A stretch of 62,004 nt of DNA, counting the filler, from Actinomycetota bacterium (GTDB lineage Bacteria; Actinomycetota; CADDZG01; JAHWKV01; JAOPZY01): the NCBI GenBank assembly GCA_025963875.1. It is 5 parts of 5 records of this genome, joined end to end, with 100 filler letters (N's around TTAATTAATTAA, not from the genome) between each part and the next. Parts side by side here need not be neighbours in the genome. Positions count along the whole stretch, not along the records: positions 14,143 to 19,832 come from JAOPZY010000236.1; 4 more parts are not named here. One strand, given 5' to 3'. The position numbers were made by a program, and so were the translations under genes. The notes beneath the pieces were generated by a model. It searched no databases. It worked only from the letters and a program-made list of their open reading frames with translations, and was not told the origin of the DNA. Below, one piece after another: positions 1,876-59,158 of this stretch. Position 1 is the stretch's first letter, and each line of letters starts with the position of its first letter.

Positions 1876-2040
1876 CCCTTCCAGCGCCCGGGGGCAGATC
1901 GCCGGTGCCTACGCTCGCGCCCCGGGTGCTCGCCGTCTCCGCTGGTAGCAGGCATTTCCAGATCAGGCCAACCGGGTCCCGCATACTGCGGCTAGCCGCA
2001 ATGCGGTGGCCTCGGCCGGCTGCGATGCTTTGTCGGAACT

Positions 2041-2415
2041 ATGCCTATTCGCCTGTTGATCGTCGACGACAACGCCCACTTCCTCGAAGCGGCCCGGCGC
2101 CTGCTGGAACGTCAAGGGATGACGGTCGTGGGCGTCGCCTCGACGACTCTCGACGCGCTTCGGCGCGCGGAGGAGCTGCGGCCGGACGTCACCCTCGTCG
2201 ACATCGAGCTGGGACACGAGAGCGGCTTCGATCTCGCGCGACGGCTCGCCGAGGGGACGGAGGCGCACCGGCCGCCCGTGATCCTGATCTCGGCCTATCC
2301 CGAACAGGACCTTGCGGACCTCATCGACGCGAGTCCTGCCGTGGGGTTCCTGGCGAAGTCCGGTCTTTCGGGGGGGGCCATCTTCGAGCTCGTCGGAAGG
2401 ACGGACAAGGGGTGA
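2041..2415 (+). CDS. Stand-alone response regulator receiver protein
   Basis: LLIVDD, PDVTLVDI phosphoacceptor, GFLAK. Confidence 0.9.
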   Translation: MPIRLLIVDDNAHFLEAARRLLERQGMTVVGVASTTLDALRRAEELRPDVTLVDIELGHESGFDLARRLAEGTEAHRPPVILISAYPEQDLADLIDASPAVGFLAKSGLSGGAIFELVGRTDKG

Positions 2416-2452
2416 CCATCGGTGAGCCTCACGGTGTGACGGGACCGGGGCG

Positions 2453-3919
2453 TTGCTCGGCGCCTCGTTGAGGCACAGGTCGGCCGCTCGCCGCGTGGCG
2501 GCGTGGGTGCTCGCGGTTGCCGGCCCCGCGCTGGTGGGCCTTGGCCTGCTGCCGTTCCGGTCGTCCATCGGACTGGCCGCCCTCCTCTTTACCCTGCTGC
2601 TGCCCGTCGTCGGGGTTGCGCTCATCGGTGGCGCCCGGCCGGCGCTCACGGCGGTGGGCGTCGGGTTTGTCACGGCAGCGTTTCTCTTCGCACCCCCCTA
2701 CGGCAGCGTGCGCATTCATCGTCAGGGCGACCTGGTCGCGGTCATCGCGTTCGTGGTCGTCGGAGCTGCCGTGGGGATCCTCGTCGTCAATCTCTCCGGG
2801 CTCGCCGACGAGCAGGCGGCGTTACGGCGGCTCGCGACCCTCGCGGCGCGTGCGGCATCCCCAGACGAGGTGTTCGCGGCGGTCACCGAGGAGGTTGGGA
2901 CCCTCCTTCCCGCCGATACCACACGCCTGCTTCGTTACGAGCCCGACGGTACGGTGAGCAGCGTCGCCGGCTGGAGCCGAAGCGGGGCCCACATCCCCCC
3001 CTTTGGCGATCGGAAGGGCTTTGGGGGAAAAAGCCTCAGCACGTTCATTTGGCAGACCGGCCGTCCGGCCCGGGTGGACAGCTACGCAGACGCCTCCGAC
3101 CCGGTCGGTGCCGCCGCCCACGAAGAGGGCTTACGCTCCTCGGTCGGCACGCCGGTTATCGTCGAGGGCCGCCTCTGGGGCATCGTGGTCGCCGCCTCAA
3201 CCTCGGACAGACGCCTGCCCCGGTGCACCGAGGCGCGCCTCGCCGCCTTCACGGTCCTCGTGGCGACAGCGATCGCAAATGCCGAGAGCCGAGCCGAGCT
3301 CGCCGCCTCCCGCGCCCGTGTTGTCGCCGCAGGTGACGAGACCCGCCGCCGCATCGAACGCGACCTGCACGACGGCACCCAGCAGCGTCTTGTGTCGCTC
3401 GGGCTGGAGCTGCGTGCCGCGGAGACCATGGTGCCTGCCGAACTGACGGAGCTCAGGGAACAGTTGTCCGGCGCTACCAAGGGCCTCGGCGACGTGGTGG
3501 AGAACCTGCAGGAGATCTCACGAGGGATCCACCCAGCGATCCTCTCGAAGGGCGGCCTCGGGCCCGCCATCAAGACCCTTGCCCGCCGCTCCGCCGTCCC
3601 GGTCCAGCTCGACCTCCGTGCCGAACGGCGGTTGCCGGAGCGGATCGAAGTGGCCGCCTACTACATCGTCTCCGAGGCGCTGACCAACGCAGCGAAGCAC
3701 GCCCACGCGTCCGTCGTGCACGTCGACGTCAAAGCGCAGGATGCGGTCGTCCGGCTGTCGATCCGCGACGATGGCATCGGAGGGGCCGATCCCACCCAAG
3801 GATCGGGGCTCATCGGTCTCCGGGACCGCGTGGAGACGGTCGGCGGAAGGATGGAGATCGCCAGCGCCGCCGGAACCGGAACCTCGCTGCTGGTCACGAT
3901 TCCGATCAACCTCAGCTGA
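2453..3919 (+). CDS. Membrane sensor histidine kinase (TM, GAF, HisKA_3, HATPase); start 2453 or 2468
   Basis: N-terminal TM helices, RRRIERDLHDGTQQRL H-box, EALTNAAKHA, DDGIGG. Confidence 0.9.
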   Translation: MLGASLRHRSAARRVAAWVLAVAGPALVGLGLLPFRSSIGLAALLFTLLLPVVGVALIGGARPALTAVGVGFVTAAFLFAPPYGSVRIHRQGDLVAVIAFVVVGAAVGILVVNLSGLADEQAALRRLATLAARAASPDEVFAAVTEEVGTLLPADTTRLLRYEPDGTVSSVAGWSRSGAHIPPFGDRKGFGGKSLSTFIWQTGRPARVDSYADASDPVGAAAHEEGLRSSVGTPVIVEGRLWGIVVAASTSDRRLPRCTEARLAAFTVLVATAIANAESRAELAASRARVVAAGDETRRRIERDLHDGTQQRLVSLGLELRAAETMVPAELTELREQLSGATKGLGDVVENLQEISRGIHPAILSKGGLGPAIKTLARRSAVPVQLDLRAERRLPERIEVAAYYIVSEALTNAAKHAHASVVHVDVKAQDAVVRLSIRDDGIGGADPTQGSGLIGLRDRVETVGGRMEIASAAGTGTSLLVTIPINLS

Positions 3920-4049
3920 CCGCTCGGTACCTCTACTCGTTCGCGAGAGGTTTCGCGGCGGCCGTCGGCGTCATGCTGGCACAGGCGCCACGGTGCGCTC
4001 ACCCCAACGACGGCTCGGAGGCACTCGCCTCGACGGAAGGAGGCGCCGC

Positions 4050-14042: not shown

Positions 14043-14142
14043 NNNNNNNNNNNNNNNNNNNNNNNNNNNNNNNNNNNNNNNNNNNNTTAATTAATTAANN
14101 NNNNNNNNNNNNNNNNNNNNNNNNNNNNNNNNNNNNNNNNNN
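14043..14142. other. Artificial contig spacer
   Basis: N44-TTAATTAATTAA-N44. Confidence 0.99.
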
Positions 14143-14638
14143 GCACGAACTCGAGCTCGACAACCGGACCACCCTGCTCGACGCCCTTCGGGAGCATCTC
14201 GACCTGACCGGGTCGAAGAAGGGTTGCGACCACGGGCAGTGCGGGGCATGTACGGTGCTGCTCGATGGGCGCCGGGCGAATGCCTGCCTGGTCTTCGCCG
14301 TCGCCGCCCAGGGCCACGCCGTCACCACCATCGAGGGAGTGGCCGCTGGGGGGAGCCTGCATCCGCTGCAACAGGCGTTCATCGAACGTGACGGGTTCCA
14401 GTGCGGGTACTGCACGCCGGGCCAGATCTGTTCCGGCGTGGCGATGCTTGCCGAGGTCGATGCCGGTTGGCCGAGCGCGGTGACCGCCGATGTCGGCACC
14501 GAAGCTGCCGAGCTCGACGAGGCCGAAATCCGTGAGCGGATGAGCGGCAACCTGTGCCGCTGCGCCGCCTACGTCAACATCGTCTCCGCCATTCAGGACG
14601 TCGGCCGATCCCGAGGCGCCCCTCAAGGCGCCGGATAA
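14143..14638 (+). CDS. paoA: Aldehyde oxidoreductase 2Fe-2S subunit (5' partial)
   Basis: KKGCDHGQCGACTV, FQCGYCTPGQ, MSGNLCRC. Confidence 0.88.
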
Positions 14639-14639
14639 G

Positions 14640-15626
14640 ATGAGGGAGTTCGGGTACGAGCGGCCAACCCAGCCCACCGACGCCCTGGCCATTCTCGGCC
14701 GGACGTCGGGCGCACGCTACCTGGGGGGCGGCACCAATCTCGTCGACCTGATGAAGCTCGGCGTCGAGACACCGAGCGTCCTCGTCGACGTCACCGCCCT
14801 GCCGTACGACGTCATCGAAGAGGCCCCCGGCGGCGGGCTGCGTGTCGGCTCCTGCGTGCGCAACAGCGACCTGGCCGCGAACCTGGCCGTCCGGCGCCGC
14901 TACCCCGTGCTCGCGCACGCCGTGCTGGCGGGGGCGTCGGGCCAGCTTCGCAACATGGCGACCGTTGGCGGCAACCTGTTGCAGCGCACCCGCTGCTCGT
15001 ACTTTCAGGACGTCACCAAGCCCTGCAACAAGCGGGTGCCCGGGTCCGGGTGTCCGGCACGTGAAGGCGAGCACCACAACCTCGCCATGTTCGGCGCGTC
15101 GCAGCACTGCATCGCCACGCACCCGTCCGACATGGCGGTAGCCCTCGCCGCGCTCGACGCGGTCGTGCACGTGAGCGAACCTGCGGGACCGCGAGAGGTG
15201 CCGCTCGCCGACTTCTACCGCCTTCCGGGCGACGAGCCTCAGCGCGAGACGACCCTCGACCCGGGGGCGCTGATCACCGCAGTCGAGCTGCCGGCGTTGC
15301 CGCTGGCGGCGAACTCCCGGTACCGCAAGGCCCGCGAGCGAGCCTCGTACGCGTTCGCGATCGGCTCGGTCGCCGCCGCCCTGGACGTCGCTGACGGCGT
15401 GGTACGCGACGTCCGGCTCGCGCTCGGCGCCGTGGCGCCGGTGCCGTGGCGGGCCCACCTGGCCGAGCAGGCCTTGCGGGGCGGGCCGGCCACCGAGCAC
15501 GCGTTCCGGGAAGCCGCCGATGCCGAGTTGGCCGGGGCTCAACCACTGAGGGACAACCGCTACAAGGTGCCGCTGGTGCGCAACCTGATCGTGCGTACGT
15601 TGAGCGACCTGGTGGACGCCTCGTGA
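14640..15626 (+). CDS. paoB: Aldehyde oxidoreductase FAD subunit with 4Fe-4S insert
   Basis: GGGTNLVDLMK, GASGQLRNMATVGGNLLQRTRC, CNKR..GSGC, CIATHPSD. Confidence 0.9.
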   Translation: MREFGYERPTQPTDALAILGRTSGARYLGGGTNLVDLMKLGVETPSVLVDVTALPYDVIEEAPGGGLRVGSCVRNSDLAANLAVRRRYPVLAHAVLAGASGQLRNMATVGGNLLQRTRCSYFQDVTKPCNKRVPGSGCPAREGEHHNLAMFGASQHCIATHPSDMAVALAALDAVVHVSEPAGPREVPLADFYRLPGDEPQRETTLDPGALITAVELPALPLAANSRYRKARERASYAFAIGSVAAALDVADGVVRDVRLALGAVAPVPWRAHLAEQALRGGPATEHAFREAADAELAGAQPLRDNRYKVPLVRNLIVRTLSDLVDAS

Positions 15627-17710
15627 CCACGCTCAGCCGCACGGTCGGTGCCCCGGTCAACCGGGTCGAGGGGAAGGCGAAGGTGACCGGAGAGGCGCGC
15701 TACGCCGCGGAGTTCCCCCTGACCCGGCTGGCCTATGGCTGGGTCGTGCAGGCGACGATCGCCCGCGGCCGGGTCCTATCGGTCGAAGAGGAGGCGGGCA
15801 TGCGGATGCCGGGCGTACTCGCCGTGATCACCCACGGGAACGCCCCACGGCTGCAGGTCGTCGACGACGGTGAGCTGCTCGTACTGCAGGACGAGCAGGT
15901 CCACTACCGGGGCCAGACGGTCGCGCTCGTCGTTGCGTCCACACTTGAGCAGGCGCGCGCTGCGGCCGATGCCCTGCGGGTGAGCTACGCCGCCGAGCCG
16001 CACGACGTCCTGCTTTCCGCCGACCACCCGCGCCTGTACGCGCCGGACCACGTCAACCCGAACTACCCGACCGACACGCTGACCGGCGACGTCGAGGCTG
16101 GCATGGCCCGAGCCGAGGTCACGGTCGACGAGACGTACTCGACGCCAGCCGAGCACAACAACCCGATGGAGCCGCACTCGAGCACCGCTCAGTGGGACGG
16201 CGACCGGCTCACGGTCTATGACTCGAATCAGGGCGCCACCCGGGTGCACCAGCAGCTCGCCCAGGTCTTCGGGCTGGACCGCAGCACCGTCCGCGTCCTA
16301 TCCGAGCACGTCGGTGGCGGGTTCGGCTCCAAGGGCAGCGCCCGCCCGCAGACCGTGCTCGCCGCCATGGCGGCGCGGATGCTCGATCGCCCGGTCCGGG
16401 TGACGCTCAGCCGGCAGCAGCAGTTCTCCATGGTCGGCTACCGCACGCCGACCATCCAGCGGGTGCGTCTTGGTGCCGACCGCAGCGGCCGGCTCGCGGC
16501 TCTCGACCACGAGGTGTTCGAGCAGACCTCGACGTTGTACGAGTTCGCCGAGCAGACGGCCCTGTTCTCCCGGGTCATGTACGCGACACCGAACCTGCGG
16601 ACACGCCACCGCCTGGTTGCCCTCGACGTGCCGACGCCCCGCTGGATGCGCGCCCCCGGCGAGGCCCCGGGCTCGTTCGCGCTCGAGTCGGCGATGGACG
16701 AGCTTGCCGAGGCGTGTGCCGTCGATCCGATCGAGTTGCGGGTCCGCAACGACGCCGCCGTCGAACCCGAGGGCGGTCGCCCATTCAGCAGCCGCAACCT
16801 CGTCGCCTGCCTGAGCGAGGGCGCCTCCCGCTTCGGCTGGGCAGACCGGGACCCGCGACCTGCCACCCGACGCGATGGGCGGTGGCTGATCGGGACTGGC
16901 GTCGCCGCGTCGACCTATCCGGCACGCAGCGCGCCGTCCACCGCCTCGGTCTCGGCCGAGGCCAACGGTGCCTTCGTCGTGCGGGTGACCGCCGCCGACA
17001 TTGGCACTGGCGCGCGCACCGCGCTCACCCAGGTCGCCGCCGACGAACTGGGCGTGCCCCTGGAGCGGGTTGACGTCAGGATCGGTGACAGCGACTACGG
17101 CCCGGCGATGATCGCCGGCGGCTCGATGGGTATGGCGTCGTGGAGCTGGGCGGTGGTCAAGGCATGCCGCCAGCTGCGCGCTGATATCGACGAGCACGGC
17201 GGCGTCCCGGATGGTGGGCTGGTCGCCCGTGCCGACACTGCGGACGACATCGCAGCACAGGCCAACCTGGCGCGGCACGGCTTTGGCGCCCAGTTTGCCG
17301 AGGTTCGGGTGGACGTCGACACCGGCGAGATCCGGGTGCCCCGGCTCCTCGGCGTTTTTGCCGTCGGCCGGATCATCAATGCCAAGACCGCCCGCTCCCA
17401 GTTGATCGGCGGGATGACGTGGGGCCTCTCCATGGCGCTCTTCGAGGAATCGGTGATGGACGCCGAGTTCGGGGACTACCTCAACCACGACCTCGCGGGC
17501 TACCACGTCGCTGCGAACGCGGACGTCCAAGGGATCGACGTGAGCTGGCTCGACGAGCACGACGACCAACTCAACCCGCTGGGCGTCAAGGGCATCGGCG
17601 AGATCGGCATCGTGGGTACGGCAGCCGCCATCGCCAACGCCGTCTACCACGCCACCGGGCACCGGCAGCGACATCTACCGATCCGCCCGGACCGGGTGCT
17701 TTCTCCCTGA
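15623..17710 (+). CDS. paoC: Aldehyde oxidoreductase molybdopterin-binding subunit
   Basis: RVEGKAKVTGEARY, HNNPMEPH, VGGGFGSK, MRAPGE, GVKGIGEIG; GTGA overlap. Confidence 0.9.
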   Translation: MTTLSRTVGAPVNRVEGKAKVTGEARYAAEFPLTRLAYGWVVQATIARGRVLSVEEEAGMRMPGVLAVITHGNAPRLQVVDDGELLVLQDEQVHYRGQTVALVVASTLEQARAAADALRVSYAAEPHDVLLSADHPRLYAPDHVNPNYPTDTLTGDVEAGMARAEVTVDETYSTPAEHNNPMEPHSSTAQWDGDRLTVYDSNQGATRVHQQLAQVFGLDRSTVRVLSEHVGGGFGSKGSARPQTVLAAMAARMLDRPVRVTLSRQQQFSMVGYRTPTIQRVRLGADRSGRLAALDHEVFEQTSTLYEFAEQTALFSRVMYATPNLRTRHRLVALDVPTPRWMRAPGEAPGSFALESAMDELAEACAVDPIELRVRNDAAVEPEGGRPFSSRNLVACLSEGASRFGWADRDPRPATRRDGRWLIGTGVAASTYPARSAPSTASVSAEANGAFVVRVTAADIGTGARTALTQVAADELGVPLERVDVRIGDSDYGPAMIAGGSMGMASWSWAVVKACRQLRADIDEHGGVPDGGLVARADTADDIAAQANLARHGFGAQFAEVRVDVDTGEIRVPRLLGVFAVGRIINAKTARSQLIGGMTWGLSMALFEESVMDAEFGDYLNHDLAGYHVAANADVQGIDVSWLDEHDDQLNPLGVKGIGEIGIVGTAAAIANAVYHATGHRQRHLPIRPDRVLSP

Positions 17711-17909
17711 GAGGAGCCCCCCTTCGGCGGTCATTTCAGTCTTAAAAGCTTGCGTTAGAAGTTGCACTCGATGGAAGGGATCGACGCAACAACACCCCGG
17801 GCCGCTGCCCATTGTGGACGGCTCGGGGAGCCCGGCCCGCGTGCTCGCCCTGGTGGACCGGGCCTGATGCCGGAGGGAAGTCCGCAAAGAACCGGTCCCG
17901 GGTCAGGCC

Positions 17910-17963
17910 GAGGAAAGTCCGCAATCGCGCGTATCCGCGCGAAAGGCGACCAACCTCTGTAGC
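17910..17963. repeat. REP-like hairpin, copy A
   Basis: TCGCGC-GTATCC-GCGCGA apex; its reverse complement matches 42352-42405 at 45/54 positions. Confidence 0.8.
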
Positions 17964-18069
17964 CGACCCGAGGACCCGACCGGGGTGCTCCGCCCCGTCC
18001 CAAAGGGCACCAGACTGTGCCCGAATTTCTCGCCGAACGGCGGCTCCGCGCAAGTAGATTGGAGGCCCA

Positions 18070-19832
18070 ATGGCGGGATTCGTCGGTCGCGGCGAGGTAC
18101 CACGCGATGCCTCAGAGCATGGCACCTCGCGGGCGCGGGCCGCGGGCCTGAGCGAGACCGGCCGTTTCACGACCGGAGCAGTCCCCGGCGGGCTCGCCGG
18201 CATGTTCGGGGCCGAGCCGGACGCCTGGTCCCATCAGGTGGTCCTGGCCCTCCAGCGCACCGCCGGCAACGGCGCGGCCGCCTCTCTCCTCAGCAAGCGT
18301 CCTGGAGGACCTCGGCCCGCGATGGGCCCGACCGTGCAGCGGGCACTCAAGTCGGTGTTCCCCGTGCCCCCGGTCTGGTACCAGCCCTTCGACGCGCTGG
18401 CCAAGAGGTACAACGAGCTACTGGGGATCGCCAGCTGGGCCCTCATGGATGCCCAGGCCAAGCGCCGGGCTGCCCTCGAGAAGCTGGGCCAGATCGAGCA
18501 GGCCCTCTACGCCTGGTTTGCCGAACAGCGAGCCCCCGACATCACGGCCACGCCGCACGGGGCCGCGATGAGCGACCTGCTGAACCAGGTGCAGGCGGAA
18601 CGTGTCAGCCTCGTGGCCTGGGCGATCAGCAAGGACGACGATCCTCCGCTCGCCAACTTCCGGATGCTCGATCCGAGCGAGCAGGATCGGGTGCGGATCA
18701 TCTGGAAGAACCTCGTCGCTGGTAAGGGCATCGCCATCGAAGGTGGAAGAGAGTTCAGGGAACGGGTTCTCGCCGACTTCGCCCGTCTCCTCGAGACCGC
18801 GACGGGCAGGATGGTCACGGGTGAACTCGTGGGCGGACACCAGGTCCTGAGCATCTCGCCGACCACGCTCGCAAAGGGCAAGTTCGGAGCCGGTCCGCTT
18901 GATTCGGAGGCGGAGGGGATCGAGGCGATTCCGGAGCCAGCTGATCGCAGTCGCTATGTCACGCTGGATTTCACACCGGCCATATCCGTAGCGGAGCGGA
19001 AGCGCCGGCTCAACGACGTCCGGGTCAAGCACCCGGCCGCACGTGGGTTCTGCGTCGTGAGCAGCGAGGGGACCCGCTGGTTTCGATTCAACCGTGGAAC
19101 CGGGTCCACCATGACCCTGCCCGCCGATGCACCGGATGCGTCGTTGCATCCTTCCAGCCGGCTGGTGGGCATCCACGGCGAGGAGATCATCGCTCCGACC
19201 TTCGCCAACCTCGGGCACGAGCTGGGCCACGTCCTCCGCTCCCTGCACGGCATCGGTGGGAGCTCTGCGGCTGCGAGGGAATTGGTGCAGCACGCCTTTC
19301 CCGGCGTTGAGGTGGATATGCGGGAGGAAGAGTTCTTCAATATCGACGCCATCGAGAACCGGATCCGGGCCGAGGCAGGCCTGTCGCGGCGCAAGGGCCA
19401 TACCAACTGGGTGGGTCAGGCGCTTGGGCGCTTGCACGAGCTTGCGCAGCGCGCCCGCGAGCAAGCTGAGCGGGGATTGACGCTTGCTGGAGCCCCGGGC
19501 CAGAGCGACGTTCGAGGACGTCTGAGCGAGGTCCTCGACGAGTGCGACCGGCTTGTCGACGCTCTGACCCAGTTTGGCCGGCACGGGGGCGACGCACGTC
19601 CTCTCGATGCGGAGGCAGCGCGCCTGGCCCGGCTCGCCGATGCGCTGCAGGAGCAGGCGCGCGCCGAGACGGCCCTGGTTCCGCCTGCGCCGAGGGGCAG
19701 GGCGAAACCCCCTGACATGGCGTATCTGCTTCTGGGTCTGTCGCCGGGGGCCAGCGAGCGGGAGACGGTCACCGCCTACAAGCGGCTGGCCCTGCAATGG
19801 CACCCGGATCGCAATCCCGCCCCGGAGGCGGG
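18070..19832 (+). CDS. Putative toxin/effector: eCIS-type leader, M91/NleD-like Zn metalloprotease, C-terminal J-domain (3' truncated)
   Basis: LALQRTAGNGAAASLL...VQR; LGHELGH...EEE...ENRIRAEAGLSRR; YLLLGLSPGAS...AYKRLALQWHPDRNP; SD GGAGG. Confidence 0.75.
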
Positions 19833-19932
19833 NNNNNNNNNNNNNNNNNNNNNNNNNNNNNNNNNNNNNNNNNNNNTTAATTAATTAANNNNNNNNNNNN
19901 NNNNNNNNNNNNNNNNNNNNNNNNNNNNNNNN
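19833..19932. other. Artificial contig spacer
   Basis: N44-TTAATTAATTAA-N44. Confidence 0.99.
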
Positions 19933-27812: not shown

Positions 27813-27912
27813 NNNNNNNNNNNNNNNNNNNNNNNNNNNNNNNNNNNNNNNNNNNNTTAATTAATTAANNNNNNNNNNNNNNNNNNNNNNNNNNNNNNNN
27901 NNNNNNNNNNNN
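27813..27912. other. Artificial contig spacer
   Basis: N44-TTAATTAATTAA-N44. Confidence 0.99.
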
Positions 27913-42351: not shown

Positions 42352-42411
42352 GCAACGGAGGTTCGTCGCCTTTCGCGCTTCTACGCGCGATTGCGGTCTA
42401 ACCTCTGTCGT
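42352..42411. repeat. REP-like hairpin, copy B
   Basis: CGCGC-TTCTAC-GCGCG apex; homologous to 17910-17963. Confidence 0.8.
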
Positions 42412-59058: not shown

Positions 59059-59158
59059 NNNNNNNNNNNNNNNNNNNNNNNNNNNNNNNNNNNNNNNNNN
59101 NNTTAATTAATTAANNNNNNNNNNNNNNNNNNNNNNNNNNNNNNNNNNNNNNNNNNNN
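59059..59158. other. Artificial contig spacer
   Basis: N44-TTAATTAATTAA-N44. Confidence 0.99.

Follow-up and report, generated by a model that had tools for sequence, protein, structure and literature searches.

Which role can be assigned to a gene whose product joins a leader of the kind typical of injection systems, a zinc protease and a domain that docks on Hsp70? This question is raised by an open reading frame (ORF) at positions 18070..19832 (+ strand) of the window, by which we mean the whole stretch of 62,004 nucleotides analysed here from a metagenome-assembled genome (MAG) of an Actinomycetota bacterium (GCA_025963875.1, hereafter G000). The ORF starts with an ATG at 18070, comprises 587 codons without a stop and is still open at the end of its contig, C138. 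We read it, with moderate confidence, as the 5' part of an orphan multi-enzyme cargo (toxin) gene of a contractile injection system (CIS, or eCIS for the extracellular type). An earlier note, made from the DNA alone, had proposed an injected protease toxin that makes use of the Hsp70 of its target cell. The features on which it relied, namely leader, HELGH, EEE, helical linker and J-domain with HPD, all lie where it had placed them, and its M91-like protease, J-domain and eCIS leader hold up, whereas the architecture proved not to be unique and no eCIS structural genes were found in the assembly.

Domain architecture of the encoded protein

The central part of the protein, residues ~191-447 (18640..19410, +), forms a zinc endopeptidase domain of the M91/NleD-like type according to Pfam and structure comparison. 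The Pfam profile PF14891 (Peptidase_M91) matched with 22.8 bits (E 1.3e-4, profile positions 86-174 of 176); since the cut-off of 25 was not reached, the domain is called M91-like and not a certified member of M91. The HELGH motif (residues 383-387, 19216..19230, +), predicted to supply two zinc ligands and the catalytic glutamate, is invariant in 30 of 30 aligned family sequences and kept in at least 90% of 110. It is followed by E420-E421 and then by E429-N430-x-x-R433...R441-x-x-H444 (together 19327..19401, +), where the EEE of the earlier note corresponds to residues 419-421 and ENRIRAEAGLSRR to residues 429-441. Altogether, H383, E384, H387, E420, E421, E429, N430, R433, R441 and H444 are invariant in the 30-sequence alignment, and the first nine of these are kept in at least 90% of the 110 sequences. 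As the catalytic columns are invariant, the active site looks intact. E420-E421, located 33-34 residues after H387, are candidates for the third zinc ligand, and the Glu/Arg block would correspond, in its general pattern rather than residue by residue, to the third ligand and the active-site-shaping motif of M27/M91 described in the available part of PMC6367388. According to the same part of that source, M91 stands closest to M27 among the peptidase families, second only to the toxins of Chryseobacterium that resemble botulinum neurotoxin (BoNT); NleD of M91 is a protease of JNK and p38.

An AlphaFold2 model of the 587 residues, built on 110 relatives, reached a mean predicted local distance difference test score (pLDDT) of 85.5 and a predicted template modelling score (pTM) of 0.79, and it shows residues 190-447 as an alpha/beta domain. 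A Foldseek comparison of the whole 587-residue model with the Protein Data Bank (PDB) gave no match at E <= 0.001, so that an exhaustive aligner was needed. With this, the closest structure to residues 207-449 was the light chain of BoNT/X (6f47_A) with a Z of 13.5, a root-mean-square deviation of 3.2 A, 167 aligned residues and 19% identity. A dozen more matches to botulinum-type light chains followed at Z 10 to 12.7, and the Salmonella effector protease GtgA (6ggo_B) matched the protease domain at Z 9.6, while none of the listed structure matches bore NleD or M91 in its title. The family sequence profile compared with the PDB gave only weak botulinum light-chain rows (E 0.12-0.9). As modelled, the protease domain has a botulinum-light-chain-like fold, and the earlier assignment as an M91/NleD-like zincin with the full catalytic motif set stands on the invariant columns, the structure comparison and the Pfam match below the cut-off.

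Behind the protease, residues 448-540 (19411..19689, +) form a three-helix bundle spacer (helices 447-472, 479-505 and 510-535, pLDDT ~97), for which structure comparison gave only generic helical bundles. The ORF ends with the N-terminal part of a J-domain, comprising residues 549-587 (19714..19832, +) with helices I and II and the HPD loop. Pfam PF00226 (DnaJ) reached 31.7 bits and therefore its cut-off of 27.8, though only profile positions 3-36 of 63 are present. The HPD motif consists of H578-P579-D580 (nt 19801-19809) and the contig ends seven residues later; helices III and IV lie past this end and are present in the orthologues, which showed DnaJ scores of 47.1 (P0004), 44.3 (P0117) and 45.1 bits (P0277). 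The target matches solved J-domains down to E 2.3e-5 with its HPD aligned to theirs, and in the sequence search of the PDB it was the J-domain only that matched. As had been claimed, a genuine J-domain with HPD makes up the C-terminal piece.

J-domains are mostly housekeeping co-chaperones, working with bacterial DnaK and with eukaryotic Hsp70. Together with the NCBIfam search, in which only DnaJ models matched, this general experience would fit an intracellular quality-control J-protein that brings its protease to the DnaK clients of the producer and has no role in attack. We regard this explanation as hardly credible. The NCBIfam matches cover ~35 residues of the J-domain and lie far below the cut-offs, the protease is of a type known from injected effectors, and the sporadic distribution, the eCIS-type leader and the relatives fused to DUF4157 with toxin-like module swaps, all described below, are at odds with a housekeeping factor.

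The N-terminus of the protein comprises a hydrophilic stretch that is predicted to be disordered (residues 1-51, 18070..18222, +; pLDDT < 50 in the AlphaFold2 model) and that contains no Sec/Tat-like hydrophobic signal. In being disordered, hydrophilic and free of any hydrophobic stretch, these residues have the properties of the N-terminal loading region of eCIS cargo. The leader motif LALQRTAGNGAAASLL follows at residues 59-74 (18244..18291, +), within predicted helices at 55-75 that appear in the model as two short helices of middling confidence. A second leader motif, PTVQR (residues 87-91, 18328..18342, +), marks the point where the leader gives way to the folded part, and its Q90 is kept in at least 90% of 30 family sequences. 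Between this boundary and the protease lies a family-specific helical domain (residues ~100-190, 18367..18639, +; helices 102-118, 128-152 and 164-188, pLDDT > 90), which has no Pfam match and in which Y114-N115, L139 and E177 are conserved in the 30-sequence alignment.

A family with exchanged C-terminal modules

The ORF is cut off by a break in the assembly and not by the end of the gene, since a 4443-nt contig from a public run, which may be the source of the assembly, overlaps the last 127 nt of C138 and extends ~4.3 kb further; a second contig of the public run branches at 19664-19735. As the orthologues P0277, P0004 and P0117 continue past the J-domain, the ORF would represent about the N-terminal 55% of a protein of ~1070 residues. 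The most informative of them is P0277, a MAG protein of 1067 residues from Pseudonocardiaceae with the source name 'DnaJ domain-containing', which is 60% identical over 91% of the query and comprises, in this order, leader, helical domain, zincin, three-helix spacer, J-domain, kinase-like domain and helical tail. By their source names, both P0004 and P0277 are actinobacterial MAG proteins. The statement of the earlier note that the architecture was not known from described proteins needs correction in this respect: the full-length P0277 and the partial P0004 and P0117 share the order of protease and J-domain, followed by a domain like that of actin-fragmin kinase (AFK-like). Judged by these sequences, the architecture is rare and not unique. 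An AlphaFold2 model of full-length P0277 (7 sequences) reached a mean pLDDT of 56.6 and a pTM of 0.36, which is too poor for domain contacts, and was not used.

An exhaustive search of 1.84 billion cluster representatives returned a family of 208 proteins at E <= 0.001, 101 of them at E <= 1e-10 and 27 at E <= 1e-30. All of the nine closest homologues list M91 at E <= 0.1. A further 74 relatives were scanned, 65 from the top of the list and nine from further down (eight chosen by length and P0117 by its match in the J-domain region), so that the following counts do not describe a random sample: M91 was found at E <= 0.001 in 63 of the 74, its cut-off was reached in 44 with scores up to 47.1 bits, and an N-terminal eCIS_core domain (DUF4157) precedes the M91-like domain in 15. 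At locus L008, the gene immediately downstream of a DUF4157 gene encodes a relative. The conserved unit of the family begins with either a leader or DUF4157 and continues with the helical domain and the zincin.

Behind the zincin, the relatives differ. P0006, P0007 and P0008 carry no extra module, P0002, P0003 and P0011 an AFK-like domain without a J-domain, P0004, P0117 and P0277 a J-domain plus AFK-like domain, and P0005 another, unassigned module; the C-terminal 180 residues of P0005 gave no Pfam or PDB sequence match and, by eye only, resemble a Cys/His protease. According to the source names, P0007 comes from Solirubrobacter ginsenosidimutans and P0003 from an Actinoplanes sp. The assignment of the AFK-like domain is based on a profile of seven of these family proteins, which matches the solved actin-fragmin kinase 1cja at E 6.8e-10; in a protein atlas, a structural match to an Act-Frag_cataly cluster was found at a template modelling (TM) score of 0.57. 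A conserved N-terminal part with swapped C-terminal modules, as it is known for polymorphic toxins, is thus present here, and the swapping places the target in a modular family with about 200 cluster representatives. Since the corresponding place in P0002, P0003 and P0011 holds no J-domain, the latter looks like an accessory module and not like part of the core. Both J-domain effectors and zinc proteases are already known among injected proteins, as is each of the parts; what is new is that an eCIS leader is combined with a protease of the BoNT/NleD type, a J-domain and an AFK-like kinase. We found no description of a J-domain eCIS toxin in the literature on contractile injection and Peptidase_M91, some supplements of which may list such proteins.

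A metagenome contig, L017 (1-872), comes closest to the target gene itself. Over 378 nt, corresponding to residues 36-164, its nucleotides are 97.4% identical to those of C138; after residue 164 there follows, out of frame, a homologue of the last 160 residues of P0004 (E 3e-39). The contig represents a copy of the gene that has suffered an internal deletion in a near-identical strain, and it shows that in the lineage of the target the gene ends with the tail of the kinase module. In this deleted copy, the region behind the gene, inspected for an immunity gene, holds a convergent gene for a secreted beta-helix protein 39 nt past the stop and no small gene on the same strand. Neither the C-terminal module of P0004 nor the rest of L017 was found in the G000 assembly. 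Another metagenome match, L018, was rejected as a chance match of 37 residues, which leaves L017 as the only relevant one.

The family is also found in MAGs of Bacteroidota and Gammaproteobacteria that carry eCIS genes. Within the order of G000, an intact relative occurs in one of 26 other genomes (G011). Among the genomes outside the order in a sample of 400 genomes of the phylum, neither a search with P0001 nor the family profile returned a relative; the only match of the profile in this sample was a remnant in G016, a genome of the same order. This remnant (contig C43, L045:1579-2277, -) is truncated to leader and helical domain, and the profile match spans one TAG stop. A pattern scan of genome contigs gave only two remote loci among 603 stretches, the pattern being too general.

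The leader and its tie to contractile injection systems

The earlier note linked leaders of the type LQRxAGNxA...VQR to eCIS and DUF4157 and proposed to look in the genome for eCIS loci and for other proteins that share the leader. A regular expression for the leader was run on the six-frame translation of the whole of G000, on the reversed genome and on five triplet shuffles. It matched at four places in G000, at none in the reversed genome and at none in each of the five shuffles; the leader is beyond chance. The real matches are the target, a 655-residue protein on contig C62 and a 463-residue protein on C161, so that two other leader-sharing proteins were indeed found. The fourth match, on C261, was discarded, as it contains an in-frame stop and is intergenic, upstream of the ATG of a DUF4157 gene. 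In the C62 protein (1962-3929, +), the leader is accompanied by a peptidoglycan-binding domain and, judged by eye, by an HEYLH motif at the C-terminus; the C161 protein (16196-17587, +) comprises the leader and has no Pfam match. Neither of them is located near CIS genes. In the family of the target, the leader was found in 39 of 154 proteins, within the first ~65 residues, and in two M91-like relatives, P0053 and P0063, it precedes DUF4157.

The connection to injection systems is observable in two operons of related genomes, G011 (same order as G000) and G022 (same family). On contig C208 of G011, regulators of the BTAD and GerE types are followed by Pvc16_N, an AAA+ ATPase, a protein of 266 residues with leader and DUF4157, leader proteins of 704 and 1604 residues, and a gp19 tube gene, while the order on contig C57 of G022 is AAA+ ATPase, leader plus DUF4157 (207 residues), sheath and tube. 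The leader of the target (VLALQRTAGNGAAASLL...TVQRAL) aligns with that of a G011 operon protein (VLDLQRSAGNHATSTLL...VIQRAL), and a (V/I)QR follows the leader also in the cargo candidates of the G011 eCIS operon. The target thereby has an N-terminal sequence in common with eCIS-operon proteins of both genomes. A search with the small operon DUF4157 protein points in the same direction: the leader stands upstream of the HExxH in 112 of the 120 best-listed homologues, at a median position of 47, and the source names of these homologues span Actinomycetota, Candidatus Eisenbacteria and Limnocylindrales. With the operons, the small DUF4157 proteins and P0053/P0063, the link named in the earlier note is confirmed, and the leader is a feature really tied to eCIS. 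As further observations on the G011 operon, the end of the 704-residue protein (L042:17455-19566, +), which has no Pfam match, resembles a small secreted ribonuclease by eye, and the 1604-residue protein (L043:35-4846, -) shows a weak Endonuclea_NS_2 match of 17.1 bits, below the cut-off.

In the literature, DUF4157 is described as an eCIS marker at the N-terminus of toxins (available text of PMC8213781). A disordered N-terminal region is required for the loading of eCIS cargo and acts as loading signal, and an AAA+ ATPase probably unfolds the cargo, as stated in the accessible portion of bioRxiv 10.64898/2026.05.27.728243. That portion and the passages available from PMC11297309 report that no conserved loading sequence was detected in eCIS cargo. 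We met no description of the leader motif in the eCIS literature, in which no search aimed at the motif itself was made. A leader that is conserved and common to operon core proteins and an orphan cargo protein is presented here as new.

The leader could also be a general sorting or processing tag that shares its proteins with DUF4157 by chance, the target then being a polymorphic toxin exported by another leader-dependent route. [quoted passage not shown] We consider such a route unlikely. Leader genes lie inside eCIS operons and adjoin the AAA+ ATPase gene, the N-terminus carries no Sec/Tat-like hydrophobic signal, and the occurrence of the family in phyla with one and with two membranes fits eCIS better than a type VII secretion system or T6SS. 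The two DUF4157 proteins of G000 are large (C99:596-4585, -, and C261:7093-10197, +) and have DUF4157 (eCIS_core) fused to beta-propeller/DUF346 and Tectonin domains; they carry no leader motif.

The search for eCIS loci in G000 found no structural gene of five families, with zero matches for Phage_sheath_1, Phage_T4_gp19, Pvc16_N, Baseplate_J and GPW_gp25 in an assembly that is 94.6% complete and divided into 273 contigs. Outside G000, Pvc16_N was found in all five other genomes of the same family, both same-genus ones included (four of four if the unpublished G025 is left out), in one of 20 genomes of the neighbouring family f2, namely G011, the only f2 genome with an intact relative, and in the single genome of f3 (G026, unpublished). 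The three other testable genomes with a relative (G011, G422 and G423) all comprise Pvc16_N and gp19-type tube genes. Since in the same-genus genomes Pvc16_N lies on contigs of a few kb or less where the length is shown (2866 bp in G024), the CIS locus may be unassembled or unbinned in G000.

Several observations weigh against the assignment as injected cargo. Besides the missing structural genes, the target is not located near any eCIS or DUF4157 gene and has molybdenum-hydroxylase genes upstream; it contains no DUF4157 and stays below the M91 cut-off. Of the marks of eCIS toxins given in the available text of PMC8213781 and PMC11297309, a DUF4157 in the protein or within two genes was found neither in the 587 residues nor in the three upstream genes, and a position within about ten genes of an eCIS operon was not observed either, which says little as the assembly is incomplete and the downstream part missing. 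In the tables available from PMC8213781, DnaJ shows no enrichment among eCIS operons, its odds ratio being 0.15 with 2 occurrences, and Act-Frag_cataly is absent; in favour of the assignment, the same source lists Peptidase_M91 as an eCIS 'cloud' toxin domain of Photorhabdus PVC loci (odds ratio 16.3, 3 occurrences). Furthermore, two relatives are decayed, L017 by deletion and G016 by truncation, the latter in a genome without Pvc16_N, which indicates that orphan copies can be on their way out. Finally, the genomes are few and partly related, and this kinship limits the weight of the co-occurrence counts, which are only suggestive.

From these observations, the target itself might be a decaying orphan, that is, a cargo gene left over after the loss of the injection system and no longer expressed or useful. 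The absence of eCIS genes from the assembly, the internally deleted L017, the G016 remnant without Pvc16_N and the rarity of the family, with an intact relative in one of the 26 other genomes of the order and none outside it in the 400-genome sample, would all be explained in this way. We hold it to be quite improbable, as the gene offers 587 open codons with every catalytic and HPD residue intact and is present in sequencing runs of many soil studies, and as the finding of Pvc16_N in all other same-family genomes leaves room for a locus that is just unassembled.

Presumed action, genomic setting and known systems

Taking the gene as that of an injected cargo protein, the following course can be proposed. 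The disordered N-terminus and the leader would tie the protein to the particle, most likely by loading via the AAA+ ATPase of the operon; this is suggested by the AAA+ gene adjoining the leader-DUF4157 gene in both operons and by the need of an N-terminal region for loading (accessible portion of bioRxiv 10.64898/2026.05.27.728243). The order of modules is helical domain, zinc endopeptidase, three-helix spacer, J-domain and then, to judge from the orthologues, an AFK-like atypical kinase with a helical tail. In the cytosol of the recipient, the protease would cut and the kinase phosphorylate target proteins, and the J-domain would bind Hsp70/DnaK and raise the activity of its ATPase. The purpose of the J-domain might be the refolding of cargo that had to be unfolded for loading, or the recruitment of the catalytic modules to Hsp70 or its clients. 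A use of the Hsp70 of the target cell for refolding or activation would be plausible. A more specific proposal is doubtful and put forward tentatively: with the cargo presumably unfolded by the AAA+ ATPase of the operon to pass into the tube, the J-domain would be a built-in handle for refolding or activation that seizes the Hsp70/DnaK of the recipient for protease and kinase, or aims them at Hsp70 and its clients, and the leader would be a cross-phylum eCIS loading label, which the DUF4157 metallopeptidase may cut off at the VQR boundary.

The target cell may be a eukaryote, another bacterium or the producer. The last case would correspond to a CIS cargo acting inside the producer on its own proteins and DnaK, in a cytoplasmic system like that of Streptomyces. 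J-domains work with bacterial DnaK too, as is well established, the organism is actinobacterial, and P0004 and P0277 come from actinobacterial MAGs. The contractile systems of Streptomyces are cytoplasmic and mediate regulated death or differentiation of the producer. In the available part of PMC11126660, a CIS of Streptomyces with a DUF4157 effector is described as acting on the mycelium of its producer. We assign a low probability to this explanation, since the family also occurs in MAGs of Bacteroidota and Gammaproteobacteria with eCIS genes, and since the AFK-like module and NleD/BoNT-type proteases are best known for acting on eukaryotic proteins.

As to the genomic setting, the window consists of at least five contigs from one MAG, chained artificially with spacers of 100 N between them (14043-14142, 19833-19932, 27813-27912 and 59059-59158), across which neighbourhoods are not to be read. 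The whole assembly amounts to 3.84 Mb with a contamination of 2.5%. C138 corresponds to window positions 14143-19832, and the spacer with the ttaattaattaa linker at 19833-19932 is its artificial junction with C139. Upstream on C138 (window 14143-17710) lie the 2Fe-2S, FAD and molybdopterin subunit genes of a molybdenum hydroxylase of the xanthine-dehydrogenase/CO-dehydrogenase type, which are unrelated to the target gene. With these three genes as its neighbours, the gene is an orphan, as the earlier note had put it. No RNA run is listed among the public runs that contain the gene.

Between these genes and the target, 113-169 nt upstream of its ATG (window 17901-17957), we observed a short dispersed repeat with a hairpin (CGCGCG-TATC-CGCGCG). 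Thirteen further partial copies of 21-56 nt with 90-100% identity are found on ten other contigs of G000, one of these copies inside the window at ~42358-42396. The read depth at the repeat was 2-10x that of its flanks in four soil runs, and an Rfam scan of 17600-18150 gave no match at E <= 1. The repeat looks like a repetitive extragenic palindromic (REP-type) element.

How the cargo of phage-tail-like injection systems is recognised, loaded and reactivated is an open question, and these systems are being engineered for protein delivery. If the leader is a loading signal, it would allow cargo genes to be found anywhere in a genome. A cargo protein with its own J-domain would offer a handle on whether chaperones of the target cell are needed after injection. 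Furthermore, the protein widens the known spectrum of these enzyme families by a BoNT-light-chain-like protease of soil actinobacteria that is fused to an AFK-like domain.

Among known systems, the eCIS-associated toxins (EATs) and cargo proteins such as Cgo1 and Cgo2 of AlgoCIS have a disordered loading sequence at the N-terminus, may contain DUF4157 and end in an effector that varies, and the target likewise starts with a disordered N-terminus followed by effector modules. Its family includes DUF4157 fusions and genes adjacent to DUF4157 genes, and its leader is common to operon proteins. It differs from EATs and AlgoCIS cargo in lying far from eCIS genes and without a DUF4157 of its own, in its leader being a conserved motif, of which none was detected in cargo according to the available text of PMC11297309 and bioRxiv 10.64898/2026.05.27.728243, and in stacking three functional modules, including a J-domain, in one protein.

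With NleD, a type III effector of E. coli, and the M27 light chains the target shares the HExxH, the downstream Glu, and the E-N-x-x-R...R pattern; its fold matches that of botulinum-type light chains at Z 13.5. In contrast to them, it lies below the M91 cut-off and carries an additional helical domain on the N-terminal side and long extensions on the C-terminal side. The route of the target is not type III, and domains for translocation or receptor binding like those of botulinum toxins are absent from it.

HopI1 of Pseudomonas syringae is reportedly a type III effector whose C-terminal J-domain engages plant Hsp70. The target resembles it as a presumably injected bacterial protein with an HPD J-domain, while HopI1 is said to carry no protease or kinase and to be secreted by the type III route, and the J-domain of the target is internal, located between protease and kinase. 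That bacterial effectors with DnaJ function exist is stated in the available part of PMC6802931.

By way of speculation, Hsp70 might itself be a substrate of the kinase module of the target. A comparable activity is described in the accessible part of PMC13215673 for LegK4, an effector kinase of Legionella that phosphorylates Hsp70 at T495. LegK4 differs from the target in having no J-domain, a different kinase fold and delivery by Dot/Icm. Nonetheless, it provides a precedent for an effector kinase aimed at Hsp70, and in the orthologues of the target the J-domain directly precedes the atypical kinase.

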